Positions 10,821 to 40,380 of a stretch of DNA of 64,000 nucleotides are shown here, piece after piece (within the stretch, counting starts at the first letter, position 1; every line of letters starts with the position of its first letter). Location of the stretch: assembly GCA_030704615.1 (NCBI GenBank), contig CM060732.1, forward strand, positions 72,602,001 through 72,666,000, written 5' to 3'. A program made the position numbers and the translations under genes. The notes beneath the pieces were generated by a model. It was not told where the DNA came from, searched no databases, and saw nothing but the letters and a program-made list of their open reading frames with translations. Source of the stretch: Takakia lepidozioides (Eukaryota > Plantae > Bryophyta).

Positions 10821-12564
10821 TACTCATAAGACGTTGTTTGCCGTAGCCTTGTGGCCATTGACCCCGCGTCCAGTTTGGATGGATCATAAAGGGACAGAAC
10901 CTACCTCAGTCAGGGCTGACGTCGGTAGTAAGACTTACCCTCATAAAGGACGTTGATTCGGGTTTTCCAGATATCCTCTAGAAATCCTTTCACACAAGCA
11001 TCAATCTGCTGTGTGTGGTTTGTCCAGTAACTAGGCCTCAGAAGGGCCTGGGCTTTTGGCTCAGCCTCGAGACTTTCAAAGTTGGTAAACATAGGTACAG
11101 GCACAATTCTCTAGATTGGAGGAGAGCTTCTCTCTGTTGAGAGTACCCCGGACAGTGAATCAGAAAATGAATATTGTCTTCGGGTTGCCCACACAACGGG
11201 CAATTGCACTCTCCCGTTCCTCTCTGCTTCTGTTTACTGTTCAAAGGTAGGCTTCCTGCCCTGAGTTTAAATTTCAGTCTGGTGCCGAGAGTGGGTAGAC
11301 CCTTGAGGTCATCCATGATATCCCCTCCCATGTCACGGACTGGAAACAAGTTCAGGGAAGTTTTCTGCCTAACTTCATTTTCATCGGACAATTTTCTGGT
11401 AACAGGCATGGCTTTGGACACTACAGTCTCTAAGTCGGATTTATCCAGCAAGGTCAAGACTTGCGGGTCCAGATTCAGATCCTTGAGAGTCTCTTCTACT
11501 CTCTTCTGCCAGGACTTAGCCTGTTTGACAGGTGGTCCTGTTTCCAAGATATAGAGTCGATTAACATAGGATATCTGGTGTTGGACATGTGTTGCAACTG
11601 ACCCCACCATCTGACCTTGAATTCATCTCGTCGGGAGCTTAAGGGATGCCAACTCACCCGAACAGCCACATTGGCTGTTTTGGAGCATGCTGACATGCAC
11701 TCCCTAAGCACCCCCACTTTAATGGATTCTAGAGACTTAGCCTGGTTGGAGTTATCAACCCATATAGCAGATCCGTACTCCAAGGCAGGTCTGATAACGC
11801 GGCAAAGCAAGGTTTTCTTGACCTCAGAGTAAATCCCTCTGCAGTGGAAAAATTTAGTGTGACTCAGCGCTTTGCCCTTGCCAGTCTGAACAACTTTCTG
11901 GATATGTGCATCCCAGTTACAGTTGGAGGAAAACTCAACGTCCAGGTATGTGTAGGGAGAGAGGACTGGAATCTCTTGGCTACCCCACTGCCACACTTAA
12001 GATCACTTCCTCCCTCTCCTCTGTCGTTGAATGCCACCACTGCACATATACTGACATTAGCCTCTAGCCCCCAAAGATCAACGTATCTCTTCGCGCAATC
12101 AATCAATTCCTGGAGGTTGGAAGGAGTCTCCCCTATGCCTGCGAAGTCATCCGCAAACATAAGGGCTGGAATGGTGGCATCACCCACCCTTAACCCAAAT
12201 CCCTCACGTTCCACATCCTCGAGGAGTTGATTGATGAAAACATTGAAGAGCAGAGGGGAGAGGGTACATCCTTGAGCTACACCTTGGTCTATGTCAAAGA
12301 AGTTAGACTTCTGTCCATTAACAGTGACACAGCTTTTGGTGTGAGCATACAAGTTATGGACAACTCTCCACAGTTTTCCCCCGCAAGACCAGAGGCGGAG
12401 CCATAGACCATCTCTCCACACTGTGTCATAAGCCCCACAGCCCCTGTTTCGCCGAAAGCCAGCTTGGCCTTCGTGAAAACAACCTCTAGATTCCAGATCA
12501 ACCTCGAGACGAGTACTTATAACTCTGCAAAATATCTTGCCAACAGCATTGAGAAGCGTGATGC

Positions 12565-12605
<41 letters not shown>

Positions 12606-15600
12606 TGTTGGGTCCCTAAAAACCCTCACCTAAAACCCTAGGCTATGGGGATGATGAAGCTAGCTGTTTGGAAATACAGGATCTGGAGGTGGAGGAAGCA
12701 AAGAGGGTGTCGCGTGAGAAAGATGAACGCCTCAAGGAGGCCCTAGATACAGCTTCAGCTCTCAGAGAAGAGCTTGAAAGTCTCAAGAAACTAAGGTCTG
12801 ATTGATTTCTAGCATGTCTCCCAATGTAAATATGGTTGGCCTTGACACACTTGCGTGTACATTCCAGTTGATCCAAACTTATAGAGTTACTGAACTTTGA
12901 AAGATGACAACCTTCTTCAGGAAAATTGAAGCAGTAGGAGGCAAGCGTCGGCGAGAGGATGGAGCCGAAGCCGAAGTAGATAATGTTGGCAGTCTATTCC
13001 AGCCCACCGATATGGGCAGGGAAGCTTATGGAGAATGCAGCAATGTTGGCCACAAGTCATTGCTAGTGAAGACAAGGAGCCCTACAAAACAAATGCAGCC
13101 AGGTAAAGACCCCTGGTCCCTGCCATGGGACACGGGAAGACCTCTGCCATGGACACACATGGGACAGCAAGCGGCCCTGGGCCTTCCCAGAAACACACTT
13201 TAGAGTCCCACCAGAACAAGGCCTTGTTTCAAGGAGAGTCTTCTGGTGCTGTGCCCTTTGAGACCGTGCTTAGAGCTCGGACACTCAATGATGGTGCGTA
13301 CACTCTTCTTGCTCTCCTTATTCTGTGTCTGACAGTTTTTGTCGTCTGTGGTCTGACAGTGATGTCTCTGATTTTGCCTTCTGCACACTTAGTTTTGCAC
13401 TGTTCCCTGCATGATTAACTGGTATACATATAGACAAACCTACTTTTTTATGACAGAAGGGCAATAACTTCTTATTGTGGTTGGCTGAATTGGAGGGCCT
13501 GAATCCCCAGTCAATTACCAGCTCAAAGCTTTGCTTTGTGGATCACATAGCTCAATACAGTTCTAGTTTGGACTCTGCAGGTTGTGTGAATTCAATTCCA
13601 ATAGAGAGGACAAGATCCGAGTCATATCAGGTAAGCACCCATGCTTTTTACCAAGTTTGTAACTTCCTTGTTTCCAAACACTTTGGATTGAATATGTGGA
13701 ATTCGAAATTCTCCTTTACTCACCAAAAATTCATCCTTTGTGTGTTTTAGCCTATGTTCAGGGGTTGTCTTTACCGACGTGCATGTTGAGGTCTTTTCCA
13801 GATGTGTCAGTACATGTCAACAAATCTCCCAGCTTTTCCTTTGCTGAATGACAGATTCCCGAGGTGCCTAGCGAAGAACCCACAACAACTGCCAATGGAT
13901 GTGCTGATGTGGGGATAGAGACAGGAAGGCCGGCTGCTCATGGGAGAGGTCCGGGGATGAAAAACGCTTTGGGTATGGGTGAACTTACTCACAGGCTCCA
14001 ACAAATTTGGGGTACTGGGGGTGCAAGAGATGATGGTGTTGCCCTCCTGCCTGAGATGTTTGCAGTGTGCCGCGAAGAGTTGTACCTTTTGTTAACAAAT
14101 GAGGCCTATGCGGATGATAGTAGGAAAGGAAGACTGTCAGCTCCAGAAGGTTCAAAATGTGCGGCTTGTTTGAAGCGAAGGGAAAGTCTTACCAGCCAGT
14201 TGACCCCTGACAAGAGAGATTCAGTTGCATTGAAGTTACATAACACTTTGGCAAACGTAAGCCATGTCTGCTACCCCTCAGGGTTGGGAAGGGTCATAGC
14301 AAGATGTGTGTCAGGTGTACGAGCAAGTAGCCTTTGTTAGGTCACCACCTGTTGCATGGGTCTGTCTATCTGTTCAATTTTGTCTTTCTCTGGCCTCTCT
14401 TGGTCTGTGTTGCCTACAATGAGACCCAAGATTGAAATTGGCCATTAGCAGAGAATCATGTATCGAGAAGTGATCCAAGAACCTCTCTTCATTTTGGCCC
14501 TTACGGAACTGAACGGGCAGTGAAATAAGACCAGACATGTTTTATACTGAATTTTTACTCCTTTTCTTTCTGCCATGAATGCAGGTGGCCAATAAGCTGG
14601 CGTCTGCAGCAACTCTCATTGGTCCCTTGCTCGAGTATTGCCACTTTGAGAATGTATGTGGAGAGAGCTGTCAACATTTGTCTGTGTTCTCTTGTTGTTA
14701 TCAAAGGCTTGTTCAAATGTGCCATAGCATGTTGTTTTTTGTGTTATTATGTCAATCAGTAAGTTTCTGCAAATGTAATTCATGTCAGTAATGTTTCTGT
14801 CGCATACTCTACAAGTCATCTTGCTGCCGAAACCTATGGCTGGCGGTCTCTGAACCAAATCTGGTCAGGTTGCACTTCAACTCGAATGAAATGGAAGGAA
14901 GTATCTGACTTTGTGATGATCCCCCTCAGATGCATTGTACAAAGTGCTCTTCATGTGTTGCACTGCATACTCCGCCACAACTCTGGCTGCAGGGAGAGGG
15001 TGCTTGGAAGGTTTGTGGCCACTTCGCTCTTTCGTCTTATTGGCCCAAATTTTTGGCTCTTTTCATTGTGTGATTTATATTTTTTTGGAATGTCTGTCTT
15101 ACAATAATGCATTAGTCTTTTGCTGGACGTCTCTATGTGCATGTTTTATCACCAATGTTGATTCTATGTCATCACATGCATGCCCAATGTGATGGATCCT
15201 TCTACCGCACCTCTTTACTGGTGGAATGAAAGTGATGAAGTCAGTGGGGTTGAGCTGAGCAAAGGGTCAATTGCAGGATTAATAACTTTTTAACATGCTC
15301 TACGTTGTTTCTCTACCAGCACTGGCTCCATAAACTCCAGCATTGATGCTCAACCCGGAGAAGCAGGTGTCTCGGTAAGCTTGAAAAAATTGAATGTGAG
15401 ATATGAAGGAAAAGGATGGTTCATTGCCTATGGCAGCCCTGAAGCAACTAACAAAAGGCCCAACTCACTTCCGGTGACTGAGGACAGGGCACTCTCCCTC
15501 GTTTCTCTTCACCAAGGATTATCTGCTGGCCGCTTGGGTCAGCCAGCAATCCAGTGGCCAAAATCTTGGACTCCACAAGGACCTTGCCAGATGGAACCAT

Positions 15601-20900: not shown

Positions 20901-23302
20901 AGTGCCAAGTTTGGCCAAGTCATACAGAAGCTGGAGTGAGGTGAAGTAATTGTGAGTATGGTCCAAACCATGGGGTCCTGTGGCAAACCTAGTGACAACA
21001 TCACAACCTTCTCCCTTACCACTTTTCTGCCTCTAGCCCTCAGGCCTCCCTGGATTCTTGCCATAGTAAACTCAGAAATTATAGACTGTTAATGGCCATT
21101 GGAGCCAAAATGTCGCATTCCTCATGTTTTCCTTTTTGAGGCCTCGTTTTGTTCACGCGATGTCCACCTCCACTTGAAATGGTGGGAGTTGTCACGGACA
21201 TAGCCAATAAGAACTTACCGAGAGTAACTTCGGAAGTTACCGAGTTACCGGGAGTATACCAAATTACCGAGAGTAACTTGGGAAACTGCTCATGAAGCTT
21301 CCTTTGGAGGAAACTTCTCCATCAAGAAACCTCCATTGGGGAAGCTTCTTAGAAAACTTCCTAGTAGCTAGTATATATAGAAGGCTCGTAAGAAAGAAAT
21401 TCTCGACCCCTGTTGAAGTCATCGATGGACGACTGTTAGTATCATGAAACATTGACCGTGAAACTCGACCCCTTGAAGTGAAGCTTAAAAATCAAGCATC
21501 ACAGATTGTTTTCAACGTCATCCACTCTCCAACGAATCTTGTGATCCTTGGACTTCCCTGGTTTGTACTTCATAATACTGACATCGACTGGCGATCACAA
21601 AAAATTTCGGCAAGACAAAAATGCAAAAGTACCAAGGATATTCAACCCCTGTTTCTTGGAGCTATAGCATTCATGAGAGCTACAAAGAAAGACACGACAT
21701 TTGCACTTTATGCGACTCCGATCAAGACCATAACAGACCAATGTACTTCGACATTACCCACTCAATATCAAAATTTCAATGACGTCTTCGAGAGGAAAAA
21801 TGCAGACATGTTGCCAGAACATCGACCTTATGATTGTGCAATTGAGTTGCAAGAAGGAGCCCAACCACCATTTGGCCCAATCTACAATTTATCTAAGACG
21901 GAGTTGGCTGCTTTACGCGAATACATTGATGAAAATTTGTCGAGGAATTTCATTCGACATTCGAAATCACCCACGGGAGCACCTATCATATTTGTGAAGA
22001 AGAAAGACGGATCGTTACGCAGTGTGTGGACTATCGTGGGCTCAACAAAGTCACTATAAAAAATCGTTACCCACTACCGCTGATTTCCGGACTCCTCGAA
22101 CAACTTGGACGAACAATTTTTTTTCACAAAAGATTGACTTGAGCGGAGCCTACAACCTGGTACGAAATAAAAGAATGAGACAAATGGAAGACTGTGTTTT
22201 TGCACAAGGTACGGACATTTCAAATACAGTGTTATGTCTTTCGGTCTTATAAATGTTCCCAGCAAATTTTCCAACACATGATGAATGATATCTTTCGAGA
22301 ATTTTTAGATGACTTTGTAGTCATCTATTTGGACGACATTTTGATATTTTCACAAAACGAAGAAGAACATGGTCGTCATGTACGCCTTGTCCTTGATAAA
22401 TAGAGGAAAATAGGACTAAATGTCAAGTTGGAAAAATGTCTTTTCCATCAATCTGAAGTCGAAATTTTGGGCTACATCATTTCCGACAAATGAGTCTTTA
22501 TGGATCAAAAGAAAAATACAAACCATCATCGAGTGGATTAAATCAATGTCGTGCGCATACTTATCGCTACACAACTACATCGCTGTCCAAAACCACACAA
22601 CACATGTGCACACCACACACTAGTATACCACTAGTCCACCACTAATCCAGCCACTAGGCTACAACTAGTCAGTCACTAGGCTGCCACTATGCTACCCATT
22701 ATGGCAGTCACTAGTCCACACAATGATAAAGAAGAAGAATACAAGCACGAGCTCACAAATTTGAAGCATAAACTCATGCATATATAACCTCATCACTCAA
22801 ATACAAGTCAAGCCAAGTGCACCCCACGCCATGGGGAATCCACGCTACGGCGCCATAGCTAGGCGCCGTGAGGCTCAACTCGAGAAAGATGAGCCTCCCG
22901 CGCTTGCCGTGAAGATAACCACTCCAGGGCCTAAATCTGCATTGATCCCTGGATTGACACTTGGGCCAATCCCAAATGTCAATATGTAAAAGCTAATTAT
23001 TTCCTAGCTAGTTTCACACTAGTGGTAAAATAACTTGACAGCTGTCGTGCGCATACATATCGCTACACAACTACATCGCTGTCCAAAACCACACCACACA
23101 TTAGTATACCACTAGTCCAACCACTAGTCCAACCACTAGGCTACAACTAGTCAGTCACTAGGCTGCCACTATGCTGCCCACTATGGCAGTCACTAGTCCA
23201 CACAATCACCCCCCTAGCTGGTGCTTAGGTCCCTCTAAGTCCAGGTAGCCACAAGATGTGATAGTGACCATAGCCTCACTAAGTTCTCCACCACTATCCC
23301 TA

Positions 23303-23450
23303 CTACAGAACACAACCAATCTCCGTCAGGAACCTTCTCAGAGGTGGTGTCAAGCATCCCATATGCCAACCCCTTGAGCATCGATCACACACCAGCATGG
23401 TGGCTGCCCCTTTGGCAGATCCACAGAGCATGCACCTCAAACCTGCAGGT
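23303..23450 (-). CDS. PHD finger at the integrase C-terminus
   Basis: CMLCGSAKGAATMLVCDRCSRGWHMGCLTPPL matches C4-H-C of a C4HC3 PHD finger; the final W.C..C segment is disturbed by a frameshift. Confidence 0.9.
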
Positions 23451-23749
23451 ACCACTGCCAAGTTTGGGTCAACTCTGCCATCAACATTGGGAAGGTGACA
23501 TGGCGCACAATTACGCACATGGTCCTTCCAAGTCATGCCATCCCGACCCTCCAAGATCAGGACCCCTGAGGGCAACACCTCTCGAACCCTCAGAATAACA
23601 CGCCCTGCAGTAACATCCAGAGTCGTAGGAGCAGTCTGATGCAAATAAACGTAGTCACCAGGGCTAAACCTCCGAACCCCAGGACGATATCCTCCACCAC
23701 GTATAGTGGCATACCTCAATGTATCACGGTGTGTGCAATGGCAAGGTTC

Positions 23750-24620
23750 TCAAAAGCCATGGGCATGACTTTCTGAACAACTCTGCACGCTGATCACATG
23801 CACGTACCCACACGTCCGGATTGTCAAGGTTAAGGACTTGAGCAGTGTCCCCACGAATGGCTGCAGACAAATCCGGCTCTCGGCCAAAGAGAATGAAATA
23901 TGGTGAGAAGGAGGCAAGTGATGCTTGTTTGTTGAAACCTGTAGCCCATGGCTAACCAAGGAACCTGAAGATCCCAATCTCCTAGGTGTCCCTTCTGTAA
24001 GCCATACTTGCGCAAACCCCTCTTCACCGTCTGAACAACTCTCTCTGTTAAGCCATCGGCCTCAGGATGATCCCGAGAAGTGGTGCGGTGGTATCAAGGC
24101 TTTATCACACAAAGCCTGAAACTCCCCCAAGAACTCTCTCCCTTGGTCCGTGAGTACCTCAGCTGGAGCACCAAATCGGCTAAGCACACGATCCAAGAAT
24201 GCATACGCAGCCCCCTCACTAGCCTTGTCAGGCAATGGAACCAACTTAATCCACTTGGAGAAGTGCTCCACCATCACCAACACATATTTGTGGTGGCGCA
24301 TAGTCAGTGGCAACGGTCCTGCGAAGTCAAGACTCCACCTGTAGCCCAATCCCATGATTGGTAAAGGATGCAATTGTGGTGTAGGGGTGTTGAATGAAGC
24401 ACGCACCCTGTCACACACCATGCACCTAGCCACGAACTGTTGCACCTCTGTATGCATACCACGCCACCAGTACTGCCCTTGCAGTAAACTGTGAGTGCGT
24501 CGCACTCCAAAATGCCCCAACTCCTCATGGGCATGCATACTAACCGTGCACGCTGTGTGGGTGAGGCACAATCCTCACCCGACCATCCTCCACACTCGAA
24601 GTAGGTGTATCCCTCCCACT
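23750..24620 (-). CDS. DDE integrase (HHCC + catalytic core), frameshifted
   Basis: HEELGHFG...CMVC, WSLDFAGP, VLTDQGREFLGEF, GLTERVVQTVKRGL. Confidence 0.92.
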
Positions 24621-24889
24621 TGAACCTCTTGGCTCGTTGCAGGATCCGATCCCTCTCCCTGGCAGTCACAGTGGCTGCCGTGTCTCCCGTGCGGAGGTAG
24701 TTCAACACAGCCGAATCCTCATGTATATCTCTGGCACCACCTGACTCATCACTAGCCTCAGGGTCCTCAAACACTCCGTCTACAGTCATCCCTGTTGTAG
24801 GTCCAACCTGACCTCCCGATGCCAAGATACACAAAAAAGAACGTGTCATCCCGGCACCATCTCCTCGTCCGTCTCACCATGCCACGAGC

Positions 24890-26262
24890 TCCAGTGTCAT
24901 CCTGCTGCTCATGCATGGATTGCGACTCAATCCATCCGCATCCCGATTGACCAAACCCGGTCGATGCACAACCTGAAAGTCATACTCCTGGAGTATGAGT
25001 GCCCACCGTGCAAGCTCCCGTAAGCTTGTCTGACTCCAATCAACCACTTGAGTGGCTGGTGATCCGTGACAAGGGTGAAAAGATTGTCGTATAGATAGCA
25101 CCTGAAGTGTGCCACAGCCCACACTGCAGCTAAGCACTCTCCCTCATATGAGCTAGCATCTGCAGCGTTGTTCGAGCGGCTAGCATAAGCCACTACGAAC
25201 TTTCTTCCCTCATCATCCACTTGTGTGAGCACCGCTCCAAGCCCAGCATGCTCCAATCCGTATGCAGCTGAAAAGGGACGCCCCCTGATAGGTCGTCTCA
25301 GGATAGCGCCGAGGTCAACCCGCCTTGAGCTCTTGAAAAGCTCGTTCCTGCTCATCTTCCCACTGCCACTCCTGGTCCACCTTGGTCAGCTTGGTTAGAG
25401 CCTTTGCAATGGTACTAAATCCCTTGACAAACCGTCTATAATAGTTTGCCAACCCCATGAAAGCTCGAACTCGGCTCACATCCGTGGGGCGTGGAATTTG
25501 TGCAATGGCCTCTACCTTAGTCTGCTGTACCCCCAAACCTCCAGGATATATCATGTGACCCAGATACTCAATCTGGTTGTGGAAAAAACTTGCACTTCCC
25601 CGGATGCAACTTCAATCCGTGCGCTCTCAAGCGCTCCAATACCACCTAAAGGTGTCTCTCATGCTCCTCCATCGTAGAACACTAAAGATGATGATGTCAT
25701 CTATGTAGCACCGAGCAAAGTCCACCCCTGCTAGAATCCTATCCATGACTCTCTGAAACTCTACAGGAGCATTCTTAAGCCCAAATGGTAAGAACCGCCA
25801 CTGATATAGGCAATCCTTGCCGTGCTCATTGATCCCCCAGAATGTCGTCTTCTGCTTGTCCGCCTCCTTGATTGGCAACTGGTGATATCCGGATCGTAAA
25901 TCCAAAGTGCTAAAGACCTTAGCATGCCCGATGGCATCAAAGATCTCCTCTGGTGTTGGCATGGCATACTTATCGGACTTGGTCTGATGATTTACAGGCC
26001 GGTAATCACCGCACATACGTCTCTCCGTCCAATTGCCATAGACATCCTTCTTGGCTGGCATCACTGTGGCTGAAGCATACTCTCCACCAGAGAGCTCCAC
26101 CAAACCTGCCTCCCAGAGATCTTGAGTCCTCATCTGAATCAAAGACCTCTCCATGTCACTGTATCTATAGGGTCTCCGAAAGATTGGCGTGTCAGTGGCC
26201 AACTCAATACGGATCTCTTGACCCTTCAGTGCTCCCAAGTCCTTCAAACTGAAGCAAAGCAA
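24890..26262 (-). CDS. Reverse transcriptase and RNase H, frameshifted
   Basis: RMCGDYRPVN, FSTLDLRSGYHQ, LPFGLKNAP, YIDDIIIF, FMGLANYYRRFV, VVAYASRS, TDHQPLKW, DADGLSR. Confidence 0.95.
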
Positions 26263-26699
26263 TTCCTGTAAGCCCTCAGGAACCGCCGTATACGTCGTCT
26301 CTCTCCTCCGGTGACAATGGGTCCAATGTCAGGCTCCCAATTGTCCTCCGTAACTGCAACCTTAAGTCCAGTGGGCTTAGAGGTAGAGGACGCGTCCAGT
26401 GGTTGCTATGTTGCAACCTCTTGAGCAGTACTCCCTACCTGCTCAGTCAATGACAAGGCCTCATCCTGCCCCATCATCTCATCCTCAAGGACTTCTCCGA
26501 GAAAATCCCCAACCTCATCCATCACAACCTTGGCTGCCAACTCCCTCTGAACCTCGAGCACCTCCCACGTGTGCCATGGATGCATGCACCCCGTGGTCCT
26601 CACATGCTCACCCCCCCACTCACTGCCTGTACCGTCTCGGTAGGCAGAGAGACCATTGAGGGAGTGTACTCCGCACTCTGCGTTGCTCACCATAGCCAA

Positions 26700-27650
26700 G
26701 CTGATAATCCAGGTCAAGCAATTGAGATCCATTGCTTGCCCCAACACTTGACGACGTGATGCCTCAGAAAGAGACGACACCGCCGTGGTACCAGTGGTAA
26801 AACCCATTGCCGCTCACGCTCGTCAGCATTAGGCTCCACTAACTGCTGCAACTGAGCATCCCAGGAGGCCAGGTCCACTATCCTGGAAAGCATGCGATCC
26901 TGGGAAGCGGAGCAGTGTAGGTAATGCTGCTCGTGGTTGACCCACCTTGTTGACCACTGCCAAAGGCGAACGGTCATCGTGTCTCACACGCTGAGACTGC
27001 CTCCCTGTGTCCAAAATGTTATCCACTGTGAGATGTGCTGGCCGCTGCACCCCATCAAATGCACGCTTGAGCAGTGCGGGTGGCATCAAGTTAGTCCACC
27101 ATAGCCGTGGACGATGAGCCCGTGACCCCACTGTAGCTGCATCTAGCAACACTGCTGACCCAAGCCACGACCGGACTTGATGCACACTGGCCATCACCCT
27201 GCCCGAGAATCGCCCATCAGTGGCACATTCTCCAAGATGTATGCTGGAGATACAGCTTGATGAAGCTGCAAGTGGCGCAAAACCCCCGCACCATCTCCCA
27301 AAAAGACCCGACCCTCGAGTCTCGCAATCCATTGCATGCCCGGCTGATGAATGCCCTTGGCAGGGCCAACCTGCCACTACCAGATCAATGGAGCCAACCC
27401 GCTCCAAATCCTGCGCCCCCAGCAACGAAATGTCTGCTGGCAAGGCCTGCTGATATCCACGAATTGCAGACACCGACAACAACTCAGGGTACCGCTGCAC
27501 CAACTGAGCAACATGGCGAAGTGAAACACGTCGTGCAGTCTCATCCCTCTCCACATACAGGTAACGCCAAACTCGTACACCTGCCTGTAACACAGCAGCC
27601 AATCCGGTGCTGATCCCGCCAAACAAGTCCAGAAGACAAATGCCTTCATC
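26700..27650 (-). CDS. C5 cytosine DNA methyltransferase domain (DNMT3-like, unpermuted) inside pol
   Basis: Motif I LLDLFGGISTG; motif II YLYVERD; motif IV DLVVAGWPCQGHSSAG; motif VI YILENVP (27222-27242, shifted frame); motif VIII RAHRPRLWWTN; motifs IX-X ERER..GFTTGTT and RRQVLGQAMD. Confidence 0.92.
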
Positions 27651-28049
27651 CGGATACTGCCACACAATAGGTGTGGTGTCCAATGGAGACAATGAGGTGG
27701 TCCTGTGCAATCCCCACACTCTCCTCCTCTCCTGACGGTACAAAAGCCTCCACCAGGCTTGTTGCACCCGTCGATCAGCATCCCGCTGCAAATCCTTGCT
27801 CGTGCCCCACAATGGAGTCTGAGCAACCATGGTAGGCAACTCCGCCATACCATACATGTCATCCTGCTCTCCCGGAGGTGGTACATCCTCTGAATGAGCA
27901 TTGCCCTCAAGCAACTCTCTAGGCCAACTCACTGCCGCTGTGAATGCTGCTAGTGTCGGCATCTTGCCTCGCTGGGCAACCGCAACTCCTCCTATGAACG
28001 TCACAGGGAGCTGCACACGCCGGCCTCCCCTGACTGCCATGCAGGCCTA

Positions 28050-28425
28050 TAGGAAGCTGACTCCTCCCAAAAATCCAGGGTGAAGCCCATGGGGTACAAC
28101 ACTGCCCCACCAACCAGGACATCGTATGAGACCGCGTCTGTCACAATGGCCTTGGCTCGCATCACTGAGCCATCTGTAGGGTGATCCGGCCGTAGTCTGA
28201 TAGCCAACTCACCCGTGTCATGCCCCGAGCCTGCTCCGATCCTCCAGAGACGTCTGTATCTGGAAAGGACAAGGCTCCATATCCCGCCTCCGTGAGGCCC
28301 AAGCCTGCAATAGCAGCTCTGCCCAGCATCAGTGGCTGAGCTCCCCAGTCCAACAAGACCGCAGTGGCCGGTACCTCTTGCCTGCCGGTCCACTCAAAAG
28401 AAAATGCATCCTGGTTGTCTAACAT
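28050..28425 (-). CDS. Aspartic protease of the DNMT element
   Basis: VLLDWGAQPLMLG (D-S/T-G position altered to DWG) and YDVLVGGAVL. Confidence 0.7.
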
Positions 28426-29033
28426 GACAACTCCATGTCACCATGGCGCGCTCAATGGCTGGCCTAGCTGGCAGCTCCATCAACCTGGCAGCTGCAGCTT
28501 GCCATGGCGCCGCCGTGGCAGTCTTGACCCTCAAATCCGAGGATCCCTCCGGCACTACACCTCCCACTATCTCCGCAGAAGATGAAGTAACCTCCCCACT
28601 CTCACAGAGTGTAGCTGCCAGCCTGAACACCTCAGCTGGTTTTACCCCCCGGCGTCGCAATCATGGTAGCCGAACAATGGAGCCTGGCACACAGATGTGG
28701 CCGCTCCTAGCAGCACACTAGCTGCCGTAGCCTTGGCAACACTAGGTAGTGGTGCTACCCATGTAGCTCTCCCCAATGGCATAGTAACCTCCGCCTCGGT
28801 AATTCGGGTGAACTAGGTGCCATGGATGGCGTCGACACTGTCTCCGCCAATGTGAATGACTGAGGAAGCCTAGCCTGACGGCTTGCCTCCCCACGCTGTG
28901 ATCCAACTCCACCTCTGCACCTCGTGGCTCAGGAATTCGTGCTGCTCCTCGAGTCACGGCTGCAGCAGACTCCACCTGCACTAGTGGTAGTGCTGCTCCA
29001 CACATGAATCCCATGCCTCCCATATCTCCTCTC

Positions 29034-30400
29034 TCAGGAGCAGAGAGGACCATCCGGCCTTAGAGCCGGTACCACCTGAGCTGTAGCCATGGCAGCGAGC
29101 CTCTGCTCTAGCTGCTGAAGCCGGTTGGCCATGCCTTGGTCAACACCCTGACCTCCGCGTCCTTGGCCATGTTGAGCTTGCCTGGCCTGCACCTCGTGGC
29201 TGGCCACCTCGTCCTCTCTGGGCTGCTCCACCTTGCCCCCGGCCACCATTGTTCCCTTGAACTGGCCTGGGCGCAACTCAGGATGCAAACTATAACACTG
29301 GGCCTCTCCATGCCCGTGCTTGCCACAATGCCCACACTGCAACTGTGCAGGCTGTGCATGTGCCGGCCCTTTGCCTCCCTCTGGGCAATCCTTCTTGACA
29401 TGGGGTCCTCCACATGTCCAGCACACCACATCCGCCCGTTGTTGGCCAGCAAATGAAGGGAGAGACCCCTGCATCTGAGGTCCTCTCTGCCCTTCCCTGA
29501 GCTTCACCTGAGCCCCCTTGTTGCCTTGAGCACGTTGAGGTAGTGGTTGGCACCACTACCCCGTGGTGTCTCCTTAGCAAATCCCACCATGACCACTCGT
29601 TCCTCCACCATGTTGAGCTCTATCCGCTCTGCCAGCAAAACACATTTGCTTTGCTAAGTGGGTTGGGCCGCTTGTAGGAGAGTTGCATCCCGCACCCTTC
29701 TCCCTCAGCTCCTTGTCCAATATCCCATACCAGAATTGGACTGCCTGAGCTTCCGTAACCCTTGTGTTACATTTATCAAGCGCCTCATGCGAGTGAAAGC
29801 CTCCCTCAAGCTCTCGGTCGGCTTCCGTTGGAACTTGCAAGCTCCGCAACTTCTCTGTCCTCACCCCTTGGTAGTTTCCTCTCAACTTTTTCGAAGAACT
29901 CCACAACAGGGTTGAAGGCAGGCACGGGTACTAGTGCTGGTGCGGTAGTGGCTTGGGTGGACGTCGTAGCTACTGTACCACCAGTCCCACTAGTCCCACT
30001 GCTGCTTACTGAAGCTGCCGGTGCAGCGGCAGGTGTAGCCACTGCCCTCGTGGCTCTAGTGCCCCTAGTGATGGAGACATAGTCAGGGTGACCAGTACAT
30101 CCTCCACTCCTCGATCTCAACCTCATGCCCCCGCCTGAACTCATGGTAATCATCCATAGGCGCCCCTCAAGGTGCTGAAACAGCCCCTTCCATGCCATGA
30201 AAGGCGTAAATAGTTGTGGATTGTGCATTTGCTGCAAATCACACCAACTATCAAACTCTTGGATAAAAATCATCCAACTCGATGGTGCCCACCGCCCCAG
30301 AGTACCTTCATGGCCCCTTGGTAGCTCCATACATCTCCTCCATTGTGTCCCACAACAATGGCAAAGAAAACTTGCACCCGCCGGTATGAGTCCTCCTGAT
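29034..30400 (-). CDS. Gag with two CCHC zinc knuckles, frameshifted; start not resolved
   Basis: CWTCGGPHVKKDC and CGHCGKHGHGEAQC; capsid-like FIQEFDSWC and AVQFWYGILDKELRE. Confidence 0.8.
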
Positions 30401-31214
30401 TCACAATCCGAATCAGAACCTTCCGTAGAAACACAGGAGGTGAAGGTGGCCTAAACCGCACACCTCGTCTCGTGTACCCACTAGTATCGCTAGTGCTCGA
30501 ACGGCACTTCCCCAGCAACTAGTGGCACCTCCGTGTTGACACTCAACCGGTCATGAACATGTCCCTAACCCCTCTCCACAAGGTAACCGGGTAGAGAACT
30601 TGTTGCGGCTTATGGTTTGGAATACTAAGTTCCTAACATAGCCTATACCTGTACCTCCATCCACCGCAAGCACTCCTATGGTTGGCTGGTCATCACCTCC
30701 AACCTCACCACAGGAGAAACAATGATGGTCTGGCTGGTCATCACCCCAGCCTCACCATCGACAGCATGCTCTAGGACTGGCCGGTGATCAAATCCGGACC
30801 AATCACCTATAAAACAAGCGCCCACACAAAACTAGCATGGCGCACAGTCAGCATGCAGGTATGGAGGGGATCCAAACACAAGAAATCAGAACGACAACCT
30901 CCCCCACCCAAAAACAACTCCACGGTGTTGCTCCTGCAAGAACACCCTAGCCCCAAACCCGGACTGACTCTTGCCTCCACCTACGGAAAGGTCTTGGCCT
31001 AATGAGAGGGTGGAAACTACGAGGAAGAGAAGCTAAAGCAATGCCTAACCCCAACATGCCCTCATCCCAACACTCTTCCTCTCCTCTCTTCCTTCACTTG
31101 CATGACCATGGGAATATCATGAAGATACTCCTCAAACCCCCTCCACGAGCTTCAAAATTCGGCCTTCAAGACCACATACCAATCCTTAGGCAATCCACCA
31201 TGCCTCCACGAGTC

Positions 31215-31835
31215 AGCACAGGCCGTCCACAGGTCAACACGGGCCACCACAGACCAGCACAGGCCCACACAGCCCCAAAGGCCACAGCCTATCACAGCCC
31301 CCTCACAGCCCCATAGGCCACAGGGCACAGCCTGTCACAGCCCGACACAGGTCACAGGGGTCACAGCCCCAAAGGCCACAGCCCCTCACAGCTCGTCACA
31401 GCCCCACAGGCCACAGGCACAGCCTGTCACAGCCCGCCACAGCCCATCACAGCCCATCACAGCTCGCCATAGCCCGTCACAGCCCGTCACAGCCCGTCAC
31501 AGCCCCACAGGCCACAGGGCACAGCCTGTCACAGCCCCTCACAGCCCGTCACAGCCCCACAGGCCACTGGGCACAGCCCGTCACAGCCCCACAGGCCATA
31601 GGGCACAGCCTGTCACAGCTCGCCACAGCCTGTCACAGCTTGTCACATCCCATCATAGCCCCACAGGCCACAGGGCACAGCCTGTCACAGCCCCACAGGC
31701 CACAGGGCATAGCCTGTCAAGCCCCTCACAGCCCGTCACAGCCCCACAAGCCACAGGGCACAGCCTGTCACAGCCCGCCACAGCCCATCACAGCCCATCA
31801 CAGCCTATCACAGCTCGCCACAGCCTGTCACAGCC
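31215..31835. repeat. CACAGCC-based minisatellite in the long 5' leader of the DNMT element
   Basis: Dozens of cacagcc / cacaggcc / gtcacagcc units in tandem. Confidence 0.95.
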
Positions 31836-32706
31836 CCTTTGCTTTCTTTCTTGCACCCACCAACCTGAAAATACACGCTTTAGCGGGCTGGAAGCATGCT
31901 CCACACATGCCCTACAGGGAAACCAGCCCATTCCTTCCTTTCTTGCTTGCCCTCCAAGCTTGAAGATGGAAGCTTCAATGAGCTGAATACATGCTCCACA
32001 CATGCAACCTCTTCACACAAGAGGTATCAGCCCCCTATCTTGGCTCGTTAGCTCCTTGATGCTCTCTAAGACAAGACTAAGCACTCCACAGCCCTTGCCA
32101 AGCTCCTGAAACCCTAAGGCTTACATTTCCAGCCACAAGACACTCCTCTTGTGGTGCAAGAGCTCTTCTTCCAAGCTCTGAAACCCTAGGTGCACATTCC
32201 ATGGCCTTGCCGCACCTCTTAGCTCCTGTTCCAACCCTGCTCTTGCCATGACAAGAGCCCTCTCAATGTTGAAGCTCGAGATTGAAACCCAATCTCAACA
32301 TACTCCACAAAGTGCACTGATTTTCCCCAAGCCAAATCAGCCCTTTCGCTTGGTCTTGCAATCCTTCACACAATGAAAGCTTGCATTCCCAAGTCCAGTT
32401 CTCAGCTTTGTCACCAAAGCCACTATAACCTGCTTTTGACTGGTCCTCTTCCCAATCGTGCTTGCTCATGCATGTACATAATTTGAAACCATCAAGGTGC
32501 TCTGGAATTACCTGCAACATGCTGCTTTCATCTCTGAAGCTGAAGATCAAATGCCAAGATCTACCACCTCGTAACCCACATCGCCTCCGCTTCTAACAAC
32601 CAAGAGCTCCACGGTGCTCCTTGCATAACAACCTGGTTTCTCTCATTCTCAAGCAAAAACCACAAGTGCTACAACTAACTCGTATTTGGCACTCACAGAT
32701 ACGAGT

Positions 32707-32721
32707 TCATCTTTCTCGAGT
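32707..32721 (-). promoter_or_regulatory. Candidate self-priming primer-binding site of the DNMT element
   Basis: tcatctttctcgagt (32707-32721) is the exact reverse complement of actcgagaaagatga (32859-32873) inside the adjacent terminal repeat; no tRNA-type TGG PBS is seen. Confidence 0.75.
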
Positions 32722-33617
32722 GATAAAGAAGAAGAATACAAACACGAGCTCACAAATCTGAAGCATAAACTCATGCATATATAACCTCATCACTCAAATA
32801 CAAATCAAGCCGTGGGGAATCCACACTACGGCGCCATAGCTAGGCGCGGTGAGGCTCAACTCGAGAAAGATGAGTCTCCCGCGCTTGCCGTGAAGATAAC
32901 AACTCCAGGGCCTAAATCTGCCTTGACCCTTGGATTGACACTTGGGCCAATCCCAAATGTCAATATGTAAAAGCTAGCTATTTCCTAGCTAGTTTCACAC
33001 TAGTGGTAAAATAACTTGACATCAACTTCGGTCCGAGATGTACAATATTTTTTGGGATTTGCAAATTTCTATAGAATCTTCATCAATGATTACTCCAAAA
33101 TTGTTGCACCATTGACACGATTCACATGGAATGACAAATTTGTATGGGACGAGAAGACTGATCAGACATTTGAAAGGCTGAAGCAGACATTTACAACGGC
33201 TCCAATTCTGATACATGGAGACCCATCTAAACCATTCTTTTTGGAAGCAGATGCATCGGACTTTACACTTGGCGCTATACTTTCTCAATACGGTACGGAT
33301 AGCCGACTTCACCTTGTTGGTTTTCGTTCTCGCAAATTTTCCGCTGTAGAGATCGATTATGAAATCCATGACAAAGAACTTCTAGCGATCATCGATGCTT
33401 TTGAGGAGTGGCGTCATCTATTGGAGGGAGTTAAACATCAGGTCACTGTCTACACCGATCACAAAAACCTCAAATATTTTATGAGTGCTCATGTTTTGAA
33501 TTGACGTCAAGCAAGATGAGGTATGTCATTAGCAAGGTTTGATTTTGTTATAACCTATCGCCCCGGACATCTTCAAGGGAAACCCGATGCTCTTTCTTGA
33601 CGATCATATCTTGCGCA

Positions 33618-34294
33618 TGTCAAAGACGAGGACATGACTGAACACAAACAAGATATCAGACTTAGAGGTACAAAACTAGACACGAAATCAAGGTCGGCGT
33701 GGCCGAATGCATGATGGATAAAGAAGAATCAAGATGATTTTTATAACAATGAACAAGAGTACAAGATACTGGAATTCGACTTGAATACTAGAATGCTGGA
33801 AACTGGACTGGTGTACCAGAACCTGGAAACTGGACTAGAGTACTGGAAGCTGAACTGGGTACTGGGACTGGAAACAAAAGTAGCTTGAACTTGTGTTGGC
33901 GAGACTGAAGAGTGTCTAGTCTCGCCTCCTATATATACTGGATACTAGGAAGTTTCCTAAGAAGTTTTCCCAACCAAGGGAAGTCTCTTGAGAAGTTTCC
34001 CCTACCAAGGGAAGTCTCCTGAAAAACTTCTTTAACCGAAGGAAGTCTCCTGAGAAGCTTCCTCGACCAAGGGAAGTCTCTCGAGAAGCTTCCTCTACCA
34101 TGAACCTTCCTGAGTAGTTTCCTGAGTTACTCTCAGTAATTTGGTAGTTACTTCACGTAATTTAGTAACTCATGATAACTTATGGTAATTTATGGTAGAT
34201 CATGATAAACTACGGTAAATTGTGGTAACTTTTGGTAACTTGGTAACTTTTGGTATTTACTCCTGATAAATTCCTCTGGGCTATGTCTGTGACA
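33618..34294 (-). mobile_element. Solo LTR of the Tcn1-like family, inserted antisense in the host pol
   Basis: tgtcaaagac...gtgaca; reverse-complement homology to 42191-42818; flanks gcgca/gcgcc split host codons YLAPK. Confidence 0.9.
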
Positions 34295-35664
34295 GCGCCG
34301 AAAGAAGGGGTGACAGTTTTTGACCAACTAAATCGACCTTGAGACAACCCACATGTTACAAACGACTTCGAATTTAAAGACGATTTGCGTTATTTCAAGG
34401 GGCTTCTCTATGTACCTCCGGGACGTACACAACTCCGGATTCTCCAAACACGTCATGATTTTTCGGCTGGAGGACATTTTGGCTTCAATAAAACAATGGA
34501 ATTGGTATCTTGGGACTATTGGTGGCCGCTAATGTGGAAACTGGTGAAAGAATTTATAAAATTTTTCGACATGTGTGCTAGAGCGAAGGGACCAGGACAT
34601 CGACCTTACGGCCTTCTTCAACCATTACCCATTCCCAAGTGTCCATGGTTGTCCCTATCAATGGACTTTATTACAGACCTTCCAGTTTCGAACACCCATG
34701 ATTCAATCTTTGTTATCGTAGATCGTTTCACGAAGATGACACATTTTATTCCATGTAACAAGACGGTTACAGGTGAAGAGACGACAAAACTCTTTCTCAA
34801 CAATATTTACCGCATTCATGGACTCCCGGATGACATCGTATCTAATCCAGGACCACAATTCATATCAAATTTCAGGAGAGGATTATTTCAAAACACCAAG
34901 ATCAATATCTCAACAACCGATCATCCGCAGACTGATGGTCAAACCGAGCGCGTAAATCAGATGTTGGAGCAATATCTTCGCTGTACAATAAATTATCGAC
35001 ATGATAATTGGACGGACCTTTTGTTATTTGATGAGTTTGCCTACAACTGTCAAGGACGAGAACATGACTGAACACAAACAAGAGACCAGACTAGAGGTAC
35101 AAGACTAGACAAGAAGTCAAGGTCAGCGTGGCCGAATGCATGGTGGGTAAACATGAATCAAGATGATCTTTATAACAATGGACGAGAGTACAAGATACTG
35201 GAACTCGACTTGAATACCGGAAACTGCACTGGAATACCAGATACTGGAAACTGAACTAGAGTACTGGGACTGGGAACAAGAGTAGCTTGAACTTGTGTTG
35301 GCGAGACTGAAGAGTGTCCAGTCTCGCCTCCTATATATACTGGCTACTAAGAAGCTTACCCTATGGAGGTTTTTTGATGAAGAAGTTTCCTTAAGCAAAT
35401 GAGGTATTTTGATGGAGAAGTTTCCTCCAAATGAAGCTTCCTGAGCACTTTCCCAAGTTACTCTTGATAATTTGGTAAACTCCCGGCAACTTGGTAAGTA
35501 ATGATAAATCATGGTAGATCATGATAAATCACGGTAAATTATGGTAACTTCTGGTAAATGGTAACTTTTGGTATTTACTCCTGATAAGTTCATCTGGACT
35601 ATGTCCGTGACATCACCCCCTCCTCTAGCGCCGAGTTCCTTGAGGAGCGGTATCTTGGACTTGC

Positions 35665-36066: not shown

Positions 36067-39000
36067 GCTGCCAATACAAGATGCAAGAGTGCTGGAAGTG
36101 TAGCTATATATACTGATGTGTGGTGCTCCTCCCTCCTTAGCATGTATCAGGTACATTGAATGTGGAGTCTTCACCTTGAAGCTAACCTGGCTGACATCAT
36201 CGTTGTGACGTCTTATTGACGTGTAGCTCGGAGCTTAGCTGGATATCGTCGATGAAATTCTTGGACTTTGTCAGATGCATTGGCGAGGTTGGATGAAGGT
36301 TTCCACGGTCGTTCTCTGATGTCGTAGCCTTTCCAATGTACGAAATACTCAAGACGTTTATACTTTGATTCGAGAGTCTAGGACTTCGTCGACTTCATAC
36401 TCAATTTCCTGATTGACTTCGATTGGTGGAGGTGGTACGAAGACTCTTCCTGGAATATTCGATGGATGATACAACTCCAATAATGAAATATGAAAGACTG
36501 GATGGATGCGCATACTTCGTGGGAGTTCAAGCCGAAAACTGACCAGATTTATTTGTCGAATAATTTTGAATGGTCCCAGATGTTGATAATCTAATTTCCT
36601 TGATGGTCGCGAGGTTTGTATGTCCCGTCGAAGAAGCCACACACGCTCCGACCTTGAACTGGGGTTGGAGTTGACGCCGTTGATTTGCATACTCCTTGTA
36701 TTATTTTTGAGTTTCTGCGAGGTGGAATGTAAGTTCCTTGTGAATCGTAGCAAGATGAGTAGCAAGGTTTTCTGCAGCAGAACTTCCAACAGTCTTCATG
36801 GGGAAATGGTTTGCTCGAGGATGATGACCATAATTGGAGAAAAATGGAGTTTGTTTGGTCGAAGAATGTATAGTGTTGTTGTAGGCAAACTCAGCCAATG
36901 ACAGAAGGTCCGTCCAATTATCTTGGTGATAATTTATCGTACAGCGAAGATACTGCTCCAAAATCTGGTTTACACGTTCGGTTTGACCATCAGTCTGTGG
37001 ATGATTAGCTGTAGAGAGGTTGATCTTAGTATCCAATATGTGAAATAATCCCCTCCAGAAATTTGATATGAACTGTGGTCCTCGATCAGATATGATGTCC
37101 TTCGGGAGTCCATGAATGCGGTAGATATTATTGAGGAAAAGTCTTGCAGTTTCCTCGCCGGTAACCGTCTTATTACATGGAATGAAATGTGTCATCTTCG
37201 TAAAACGATCTACAATAACAAGGATTTAATCGGTGGTCTTGGAAATTGGAAGGTCCGTAATAAAGTCCATAGACACGGACGACCATGGACCCTTGGGAAT
37301 GGGTAATGGTTGAAGAAGGCCGTAAGGTCGATGTCGTGGCCCCTTCGCTCTAACACATGTGTCGCAAGATTTTATAAATTCTTTCACGAATTTCTACATC
37401 TGTGGCCACCAATAGTCCCTGGATATCAATTCCATTGTTTTGTTGAAGCCGAAATGTCCTGCAGCCGGAAGATTATGACATGTTTGAAGAATTCGTAGTC
37501 GTGTAGGTCCTGGAGGTACATAGAGAAGTCTCTTGAAATAAAATAAGCCATCTTTGAATTCGAAGTCGTTTGTAACATGTGGGTTGTCTCGAGGTTGATT
37601 TAGTTGACTTCATAGTGTCGTAGCAAATTGGTTGCTCTTCAGTGCTTCCTGAATCTCCTGTATGATCTCTGCATCGTCATAGGTGGATATGGATAACCTA
37701 TTCAATTGGAGATTTGCTGGTTTCAAGATGATAGATTTCTGTTGGTCGAAAGCTGTCTCATTTTTTTTCGGCGCAAGATACGATCGTCGAAAAAGAGCAT
37801 CGGGTTGATGTCCGGGGCGATAGGTAATAACAAAATCAAACCTTGCTAGTGACATACCCCATCTGACTTGCCGTCGATTCAAAACACGAACACTCATAAA
37901 ATATTCGAGGTTTTTGTGATCGGTGTAGATAGTGACCTGATGTTTAGCTCCCTCCAGTAGATGACGCCACTCCTCAAAAACATCGATGATCGCGAGAAGT
38001 TCTTTGTCATGGATTTCATAATTGATCTCTGCAGCGGAAAATTTGCAAGAACGAAAATCAACAGGGTGAAGTCGGCCATCCGTACCGTATTGAGAGAGTA
38101 TAGCGCCAAGTGCAAAGTCCGATGCATCTGCTTCCAAAAAGAATGGTTTGGATGGGTCTGCATGTACCAGTATTGGAGTCGTTGTAAATGTCTGCTTCAG
38201 CCTTTCAAATGTCTGGTCAGCCTTCTCGTCCCATATAAATTTGTCCTTTCATGTGAGTCTGTCAATGGTGCAACAATTTTGGATTAGTCATTGATGAAGA
38301 TTCTATAGAAATTTGCAAAGCCCAGAAAACATTGTATATCTCGGACCGAAGTTGGTTTAATCCACTTGATGATGGTTTGTATTTTCTTCTGATCCATAAA
38401 GATGCCTTTGTCGAGAAGCCCAGAAATCAGCGGCAACGGATAACGATTCTTGATTGTGACTTTGTTGAGACCACGATAGTCGACACACATGCGTAATGAT
38501 CCGTCCTTCTTTTTCACAAAGAAGATAGGCGGCCCTGCAGGTGATTTTGAATGTCGGATGAAGTGCTTCGACAAATTTTCATCAATGTATTCACATAATG
38601 CAGCTAACTCCGTCTGGGATAAGTTATAGATTGGGCCGAATGGTGGTTGGGCTCCTTCTTGTAACTCAATTGCACAGTCATAAGATCGATGTTCTGGCAA
38701 TATGTCTGCATTTTTCTTCTCGAAGACATCTTTGAAATCTTGATATTGAGCGGGTAATGTTGAAGTACATTTGTCTGTTATGGTCTTGATCGGAGTCGCA
38801 TAGAGTGCAAATGCCGCATCCTTTTTGGTAGCTGTCATGAAAGCTCTAGCTCTAAGGAACATGGGTTGAATACCTTTGATATTTCTACATTTTTGTCTTG
38901 AAGAATTTTTTCGCGATCGCCGGTCGATGTCGGGATTGTGAAGTACAAACCAGGGAAGTCCAAGGATCACAGGATTCGTTGGAGATTGGATGACGTTGAA

Positions 39001-40380
39001 AACAATATGTGATGCTTGATCTTTAAGTTTCACTTCAAGTGGTCGAGTTTCATGGTCCACATTTCCTGATGCTAACGGTCGTCCATCGATGATTTCAACG
39101 GGGGCCGAAAGTTTCTTCTTTACGAGCGTTAAATTGTGTTGCTTCGCAAAGTTTTTGTCCATAAAACAAGCTGAAGCCCCTGAGTCCAAAAGTGTTTCTA
39201 CAAAGATATCTCGATTTTACACTGTGATTTTTACCGGAACTGTGAAGCAAGGTGCGGGGTCTGGAGGTAGAAAGAGACATTTTTTCGGTAAGGAATTTGT
39301 GGTGTCCAGCCGCATGGTCCCTACTGTGACTGGACATCTTTGTTTTCCGACCTCCTCATATCGAACACTTGAATTGTGCCCCGAGCTTTGAATCTTCTCT
39401 TGTTGGGGCAGTTTAATGCTATGTGATCTTCTTCTCCGCAATAGAGGCATAATCCATTCGAGCGTCGTCTTTGTTTTTCTTGTAGCGTCAATGGCTTGAA
39501 TCAGACAACATCAATCTGCATAGGATCTCTACCGGATGTCTGATGGATCGTTGTGTTTGGTGCCGTAGTAGTAGTGACATGATGCGTCGTCGACCATCCA
39601 GATCGCTTCTCTTGACGTCTTTCGATCAAACGATTATCGCATGCAATGACTTAGGTGATAAATTCACTCAGTGTGCTCACGTTTGGCATTGTCAGCAATA
39701 AATCTTTTACATCATCTTTTAGCCCACATCGAAACTGATTAATGAGACTCTTCTCATTCCAGTCGAGGTCGCACGCAAGTTGTCGAAATTCGATAGCATA
39801 AACGGAATCAGGATGTGCTCATTGTCGAAGATTTCGCATCTTTGTCTCTGCAACTCTCTCTCTATCATTCTCTCCAAACGTTGCAGTGAACTCGGACATG
39901 AATGCTTCAAAATTATATAATAAATGATTTTTTTCTTCTAATAGCGGTGCAAATCAAGATAGGGCAGTGCCTGATATAAGGGTGCCCACGAATCCCACTT
40001 GAATACCTTCATCGGGGTAGCGTTCTGGATGTAGTCATATGAACAGTCGTACTTGTTGAACAAAATCGCGAAATTTTGATCTCGTCCCATCAAATTTCTC
40101 GGGCATACTGATCTTTGGTTCTCTCATAATCTGTTGAAGATGAACCGTTGCAGTAGGAGCTGTTGCAGTAGGGATTCGTATGGTTGAAAATCCATTGTTC
40201 GACTCCTTTAACTTTTGAAATTTGTTGTTGCAAATTGTGGAGAGCGTTGCCAAGATCTTGAGACTGATCAACTTGCAATTGGGCGGTAGAGGTATGAAGT
40301 TCTTGCATCTGGAGCTGAAGACTCTGCAATGTGGCGACCATTTCCGCAAATGTGCCTTCCATCTTAACTGAACAAACTTT

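Follow-up and report, generated by a model that had tools for sequence, protein, structure and literature searches.

A 64,000-nucleotide stretch of the Takakia lepidozioides genome (GenBank assembly GCA_030704615.1, contig CM060732.1, positions 72,602,001 to 72,666,000; "the window" below, with positions counted from its first letter) holds a land-plant Gypsy-DNMT3 element, that is, a retrotransposon of Ty3/Gypsy type that carries its own DNMT3-like C5 cytosine DNA methyltransferase (DNMT). A methyltransferase within a Gypsy element is a design that has already been published. On balance, if only just, we favour the view that this element represents a Gypsy family in which the DNMT stands at the end of the first open reading frame (ORF1), would be packaged at the level of Gag and would methylate the complementary DNA (cDNA), and in which the integrase would cut at an internal palindrome. 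The element extends over 22547-33021 and is thus larger than the interval 23303..30400 given by the original prediction, which was made from the sequence alone.

Read on the minus strand, the region 23300-30343 contains gag, zinc knuckles, protease, C5-methyltransferase, reverse transcriptase (RT), RNase H, integrase and a PHD finger in this order. The Gag-like region with its two CCHC zinc knuckles (29270..30343; Pfam zf-CCHC in the relative P0156) possibly starts as far up as ~30520, as suggested by likeness to P0187. It is followed by an aspartic protease (28025..28440), which was recognized by tblastn and by a reading with X at the breaks against relatives (Asp_protease_2 scored below the cut-off in the relative P0139), and by the DNMT3-like domain (26706..27650). 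Beyond these lie the RT (25400..26330; Pfam PF00078, E 5e-18), RNase H (24910..25250; PF17917), an integrase with an H2C2 zinc finger and a DDE core (23740..24560; PF17921, PF00665) and, as the tail of ORF2, the PHD finger (23300..23435; PF00628, E 3e-7), which has a frameshift ahead of its last cysteines. The Gag-like region, protease, RT, RNase H and integrase are all broken. At least 32 frameshifts but few stops were found in the coding region, five of them in the DNMT domain and 27 more in other aligned stretches. As 59% of the frameshift sites fall at runs of three or more identical bases, against a background of 33%, some of the breaks may be assembly or sequencing errors; the break near 27283 was missing from the contigs of other copies in all four runs compared. 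The copy is non-functional as assembled. Contigs of the same organism covered every part of the element, methyltransferase included, in many variants (four runs from at most two samples); copies in the same genome were seen through these run contigs only, and their summed depth gives no copy number.

When read with X at the breaks (~27650-26706), the DNMT domain was 75% identical to the relative P0121 across 330 residues. It displays DLFGG (motif I), GWPCQG (IV), ILENV (VI), RAHRPRLWW (VIII), ERERxMGF (IX) and RRQVLGQAM (X) in unpermuted order between the protease and RT, as originally described, and this order led us to reject an identity as plant DRM. The methyltransferase had also been called full, which does not hold for this copy: its domain is interrupted near 27334, 27281, 27201, 26864 and 26808, and these five frameshifts account for the weak score that Pfam gave by itself (E 0.0012). 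A profile built from 12 relatives matched DNMT3A (1e-22) and DNMT3B (3e-19) far better than DRM-type structures (2e-10 to 1e-7) or the bacterial enzymes M.HaeIII (4e-8) and M.HhaI (8e-7), in agreement with the DNMT3-like character first proposed. Foldseek likewise placed DNMT3A on top, but the predicted model used was poor (mean predicted local distance difference test score, pLDDT, 54) and adds little to the profile search. Judged by this profile, the closest solved relative of the domain is DNMT3A, and the domain is also nearer to DNMT3A/B than to DNMT2.

Among the proteins returned by the domain search, 121 were similar in length and 33 were longer. The named matches came from Marchantia polymorpha, M. 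paleacea, Calypogeia fissa, Riccia sorocarpa and four Sphagnum species, and no match bearing the name of Klebsormidium was obtained in the protein and domain searches. Scans of IMG/VR gave one partial locus, and none for P0152. One relative, P0124 (Mp_4g09160) of M. polymorpha, is an unbroken Gag-protease-DNMT protein of 1278 residues. A comparison set of 80 metagenome loci (L-numbers), not all of them independent, was also used; loci in it are termed moss-type after the match of their linker to a protein of Sphagnum fallax. Within this set, a protease lies upstream of the DNMT in 50 of the 55 loci with upstream room and RT downstream of it in 51 of the 56 with downstream room. All seven domains occur in order in 17 loci, and the DNMT follows RNase H in none. 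The catalytic Cys is retained in 79/81 loci and the motif VI Glu in 77/81. A one-off capture of the domain can thus be rejected, as it is a fixed part across the liverwort and peat moss relatives and keeps its position in the metagenome loci. Between the window and the loci, the median proportion of nonsynonymous differences (pN) in the DNMT was 0.19 and that of synonymous differences (pS) 0.72, compared to 0.13-0.17 and 0.68-0.73 for RT and a pN of 0.13 for integrase; the codons were restricted to well-aligned windows, which favours conservation in all domains alike, and synonymous sites are saturated between the window and the moss-type loci. By this measure the DNMT domain is not neutral but under purifying selection, at a level close to that of RT.

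The ends of the element do not have the form expected of a retrotransposon with long terminal repeats (LTRs). In the sense direction, the order is A1, internal region, B1, GC, A2, B2, all on the minus strand. Repeat A1 (301 bp; 32721..33021) starts with TGTC and forms the outer 5' end, while B2 (22547..22723), terminating in GACA, forms the outer 3' end. B1 (23043..23208) is 96% identical to B2 across 162 aligned bases and immediately follows a polypurine tract, AGGGGGG (23209..23215), that is found in identical form ahead of B in moss-type loci. A2 (22724..23040) is 96% identical to A1 across 301 bases, starts with TGTC, ends with TATCA and directly abuts B2. The outer ends TGTC..GACA are flanked by a 4-bp target-site duplication (22543..22546, with the same bases at 33022-33025), and both features are fixed by an uninterrupted homolog (38413-38180), where the four bases occur only once, and by empty-site contigs that join 22543 to 33023 in three runs. 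Where B1 meets A2, the two outer ends stand head to head two bases apart as the palindrome GACA-GC-TGTC (23037..23046), a candidate att site of which the outer ends are the two halves. This B-A junction is bridged by one contig in each of X2 and X6, and the two-base spacing recurs in all four loci that retain the junction (GC in L006 and L064, AT in L038 and L073). The classification as a Ty3/Gypsy LTR element was therefore right with regard to the domain order and DDE integrase; the terminal LTR pair is absent, and the split repeats and internal att-like palindrome had been overlooked. With its repeats split as A-internal-B-A-B, the element is not a canonical LTR element.

The moss-type family, which has different repeat sequences, showed the same end behaviour. 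Each of the 18 distinct 5' ends begins at A, with TGTC in 15 of them, and an exact 4-bp duplication flanks seven of the nine loci with both outer ends, the other two being off by one transition, whereas a 5-bp duplication was found in 0/9 and rejected; these numbers were obtained from metagenome assemblies of a single moss-type family, in which repeats may be misjoined. L046 and L047 were excluded from the 5'-end count owing to an internal fusion and L006 from the duplication count as its contig ends in A2. The A-B joint, in turn, varies among copies: the two repeats may abut directly or be separated by one base, by a 17-base filler or by nine retained bases of the primer site. Three separate truncated copies were joined at the first bases of B, so that this point is taken to be a free DNA end. 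A shorter form that stops at B1 (A-internal-B) was found in 11 distinct insertions, not counting L040, whose contig ends one base past B.

The signals for reverse transcription border the inner ends of the repeats and not the outer ones. The primer-binding site (32702..32720, minus strand) lies immediately past A1, and together with the polypurine tract before B1 it predicts that reverse transcription should yield a B-GC-A repeat. As these positions differ from the outer ends, and the ends made by RT are joined imprecisely, the integrase likely cuts the palindrome inside the LTR rather than using the ends of the cDNA. A similar reaction has been proposed for foamy virus, whose integrase would make processed ends by cutting a head-to-head palindrome (PMC1180852, in the portion available); there, however, the palindrome arises where the RT-made ends are joined, whereas here it appears as a separate inherited site in the LTR and the RT ends are joined imprecisely. 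The foamy virus case also bears on the main rival to our reading, in which the RT-made ends would first be ligated into a 2-LTR circle and the integrase would then open the circle at one internal palindrome, since cleavage of the palindrome in 2-LTR circles is what that paper describes. Such a circle would give the same A-internal-B-GC-A-B product with variable A-B joints, and one-LTR circles would yield the common A-internal-B form. It would also hold two equal sites, so that the mirror form (A-B-A-internal-B) should be equally common, but this form was not seen among the 18 distinct 5' ends, whereas the window and four of the loci show the 3' form. The argument is indecisive, as mirror copies could collapse faster or break assemblies, and we regard opening of a circle as rather unlikely, though a serious competitor to the cutting of linear cDNA.

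A rearranged copy is present in L049 (12680-13570, also in L050). Here RNase H is cut off; next come inverted segments derived from A and the 5' coding region, and after these an A fragment that starts just past the candidate self-primer, nine primer-site bases, filler and B. The structure has the appearance of a reverse-transcription intermediate trapped during insertion.

The primer-binding site is complementary to a stretch within A1 (32860..32878, minus strand), a candidate for both the self-primer and the transcript start. Pairing of the primer site with a stretch inside A was found in two families, with one compensated position; it was judged from the sequences and an alignment fold, as the count of exact runs misses decayed copies. 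The conserved pairing suggests that the RNA may prime itself as in Tf1. A primer site right after the repeat that is complementary to a position within the repeat, with a core of ~11 bases, is described for Tf1/sushi elements and plant Tcn1 in the accessible parts of PMC7175516 and PMC6317226. These elements have terminal LTRs, in contrast to the split repeats, PHD finger and methyltransferase found here.

The coding region is divided by an in-frame TAG (26408-26406) into ORF1, Gag-protease-DNMT, and ORF2, RT-RNase H-integrase-PHD. The original prediction had placed the enzyme inside pol, in frame with it, and expected it to be packaged along with RT and integrase. The shared frame was borne out, with RT in the DNMT frame in 41 of 57 rows examined and the remainder shifted by indels, but a conserved stop intervenes, and the DNMT is consequently the end of ORF1 and would be packaged at the level of Gag. 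Among the 60 loci with both anchors, a script located TAG (34) or TAA (15) followed by CAA in 49, 17-18 codons before the RT anchor. Inspection by eye added a stop with CAA in L011 and L025 and TAG TAG CCA in L066; apart from L021/L069, described below, the other loci were shifted or deleted. Relatives point to the same boundary, as the distance from motif X to the protein end is 92 residues in the Marchantia proteins P0124 and P0126, 94 in P0122 of Calypogeia and 88-110 in unnamed proteins. Retroelement stops usually fall after gag; here the protease and methyltransferase also lie upstream of the stop. The stop and its 3' context in the window, TAG CAA CCA (26400..26408, minus strand), correspond exactly to the readthrough-type context UAG-CARYYA of tobacco mosaic virus, as that motif is defined in the consulted part of PMC4132726, and the divergent L032 has the same nine bases. 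With the conserved stop after the DNMT, the enzyme is likely made at Gag level in the bryophyte branch, and RT and integrase via occasional readthrough. In three Marchantia gene models (P0128, P0130 and P0134), the DNMT is joined to RT and the stop-bearing linker is absent, as though the annotation had placed an intron there.

These features can be combined into a possible replication cycle. Gag, zinc knuckles, protease and DNMT are encoded as ORF1, followed by the stop and, in the same frame, RT, RNase H, integrase and PHD finger. Occasional readthrough of UAG-CAA-CC(A) would produce the long fusion, and the DNMT would exceed RT and integrase in the particle. Self-primed RNA and the polypurine tract would then give a linear cDNA with the B-GC-A repeat at both ends. 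Processed retroviral ends carry 2-base 5' overhangs, and the same overhangs would be left if the integrase cut the left-hand GACA-GC-TGTC after each CA; the left-hand palindrome, the first to become double-stranded, would be the one used. Both new ends would be joined to the target with a 4-bp stagger. Host end joining of the loose RT-made ends would produce A-internal-B-GC-A-B, which would be replication-competent, while annealing of the two B copies would alternatively give A-internal-B, a dead end. Once released, the DNMT may convert cytosines of the cDNA to 5-methylcytosine, either ahead of integration or during it, and the complex may be steered to chromatin by the PHD finger.

Several observations weigh against this scenario. 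The window copy itself is broken. The motif VIII arginines are retained in just 47/81 and 56/81 loci, changes that look like CpG decay of dead copies. L025 and L073 share one insertion site, with and without A2, so that the short form may arise later or in assembly, and the end counts as a whole carry the risk of misjoined repeats mentioned above. With regard to the stop, a tyrosine codon replaces it in L021/L069, and no stop separates DNMT and RT in the four distant relatives P0144, P0245, P0263 and P0305. The main moss-type family has CAA CCC, which matches CARYYA at five of six positions, and an ATG two codons past the stop, which also allows reinitiation. It is this ATG that speaks for bypass of the stop by reinitiation, splicing or a second RNA instead of readthrough, in which case the DNMT would still be made at Gag level; the TAA in 15 of the 49 loci with CAA context, and exact CARYYA in two counted loci only, point the same way. 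The ATG is absent from the window, L032 and L066, however, and families with saturated synonymous sites still share the frame and the Gln-Pro codons that follow the stop. We consider these routes unlikely compared with readthrough.

The test for a footprint of self-methylation gave a negative result. The ratio of observed to expected CpG was 0.51 for the element. Neighbouring Gypsy copies reached 0.89-0.94, but a long interspersed nuclear element (LINE) in the same window had 0.39, and because the LINE matches the depletion, no footprint of self-methylation is demonstrated by it. Derived C-to-T changes in the window copy (14 CHH, 5 CG and 5 CHG) were near availability. Neither CpG depletion nor derived C-to-T contexts thus revealed such a footprint on the element. 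This could mean that the DNMT acts mainly on host chromatin, at the insertion site or host genes, or serves as a DNA-binding or structural module, and bulk synthesis beyond the needs of one cDNA would suit such a role. The catalytic residues are conserved, though, and the PHD finger is encoded beyond the stop together with the integrase, so that it would no longer target the DNMT once the protease has cleaved the two apart. A related retrotransposon enzyme, SymbioDIRS-Dnmt3, methylates CG de novo according to the section of PMC5890265 at hand. A main action on host chromatin or a purely structural part appears to us improbable, and methylation of the cDNA is preferred.

The published system closest in design is KnitGypsy-Dnmt3 of the charophyte Klebsormidium nitens, a Gypsy-DNMT3 element under purifying selection and with DIRS-like repeats (de Mendoza et al. 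2018, PMC5890265, available in part). In both, a DNMT3-type domain that is intronless and unpermuted forms part of a Gypsy polyprotein and evolves under purifying selection, and both combine Gypsy domains with a DIRS-like repeat layout. They differ in that the present element comes from a land plant and has relatives in liverworts and peat moss. The placement of the DNMT probably differs as well: for KnitGypsy-Dnmt3 it is described within the Pol ORF, whereas the present domain, though in the same frame as RT, closes ORF1 before the conserved stop. In the available text, neither a PHD finger nor self-priming is given for KnitGypsy-Dnmt3, and the same holds for a target duplication and an integration route, the two elements being compared by description and not by sequence. 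Despite the split repeats, membership in DIRS/Ngaro was rejected for the present element, as it has a DDE integrase and no tyrosine recombinase. Copying of the split repeats through RNA, as in Ngaro/PAT-type DIRS, so that both joints would be templated and not the work of host repair, would fit the DIRS layout noted for KnitGypsy-Dnmt3 (PMC5890265) but is very unlikely given the DDE integrase, the lack of a tyrosine recombinase in two Pfam scans, which covered 12 and 18 proteins or frames, the TG..CA ends with a 4-bp duplication, and an A-B joint that varies and may retain primer-site bases.

Other retrotransposons also encode their own DNA methyltransferase, namely SymbioDIRS-Dnmt3 and SymbioLINE-Dnmt (PMC5890265) as well as EpiLTRs and DAM-LTRs (bioRxiv 10.64898/2026.05.21.726589), and self-methylation of the cDNA has been proposed for such systems. 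In the portions available, they belong to other element classes or use other enzymes (DNMT4-related, DAM), with chromodomains instead of a PHD finger. The same preprint mentions "streptophytes (Gypsy-DNMT3)" in passing; like PMC12344493, it speaks of streptophytes and leaves land plants unnamed in the accessible text, while the supplementary trees may include bryophyte sequences. The expectation that DNMT-bearing elements are not recognized among land-plant LTR lineages agrees with our literature search, which had most subscription journals outside its reach and found no paper describing land-plant members, the stop or the integration route.

A profile search gave 473 clusters at E 1e-30 or better and placed the family in a wider context. 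Among the best 150 of the 473, the DNMT lies after RT/RNase H in 68, before the integrase in 19 and after the protease or before RT in 12, and 51 consist of the domain only. In trees of the DNMT and of RT, the protease-DNMT type forms a single clade each time, comprising 22 of 113 sequences (support 0.96) in the former and 4 of 54 (support 0.95) in the latter. The trees (FastTree, midpoint-rooted) contain no named host DNMT3, DRM or bacterial sequences, so that no donor is named. They fit one acquisition and one later move of the DNMT within the polyprotein. Tentatively, and with somewhat less assurance than for the bryophyte family itself, these data may be read as a large green-lineage Gypsy clade in which integration ends are uncoupled from RT ends: the integrase would cut a palindrome inherited within the LTR, and host repair would close the RT-made ends. 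In the bryophyte branch, the DNMT3, formerly located between RNase H and integrase, would have shifted to the Gag-proximal side of a leaky stop, with the result that every particle would contain the enzyme in bulk and deliver pre-methylated DNA; the whole is offered as one joint and provisional proposal.

If this proposal is true, standard LTR finders are blind to such elements. An internal cut site, if it holds, would be an integration route absent from the searchable papers on LTR retrotransposons and would offer an explanation for the DIRS-like repeats, which the 2018 study left without one. It would also account for a lineage missed by surveys that require terminal LTRs (PMC6317226, as far as available). 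The combination of Gag-level expression and internal-site integration would surprise a specialist and is testable in Marchantia, where the presence of family members also opens the role of a retrotransposon's own methyltransferase to study in a genetic model plant. For annotation, copies of the element swell the DNMT gene counts in bryophytes.

Further features were observed in and around the element. A GC-rich tandem array with periods of 10, 32 and 52 bp (31202..31836) extends the 5' untranslated region to 2.3 kb, compared to ~1.2 kb in moss-type loci. The insertion lies in the RT of an unrelated Gypsy element without methyltransferase (21448-22546 and 33022-35070, plus strand), an uninterrupted relative of which is found at ~36700-39216 on the minus strand. 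Elsewhere in the window, decayed LINE-type RT fragments are present at 9048-9554 and 11038-12625 (minus strand). An intronless frame of 681 residues at 54285-56330 (plus strand) has its best named matches in Sphagnum troendelagicum (56%) and Ceratodon purpureus (54-55%); no precomputed Pfam domain was listed for any of its 14 matches, and it represents an uncharacterised moss-type family. Identities of 54-56% to Sphagnum and Ceratodon in a gene next to the element suggest that the window probably stems from a different bryophyte than the metagenome loci. The frame at 52924-53454 (minus strand) resembles what we take to be a WD40-repeat exon.

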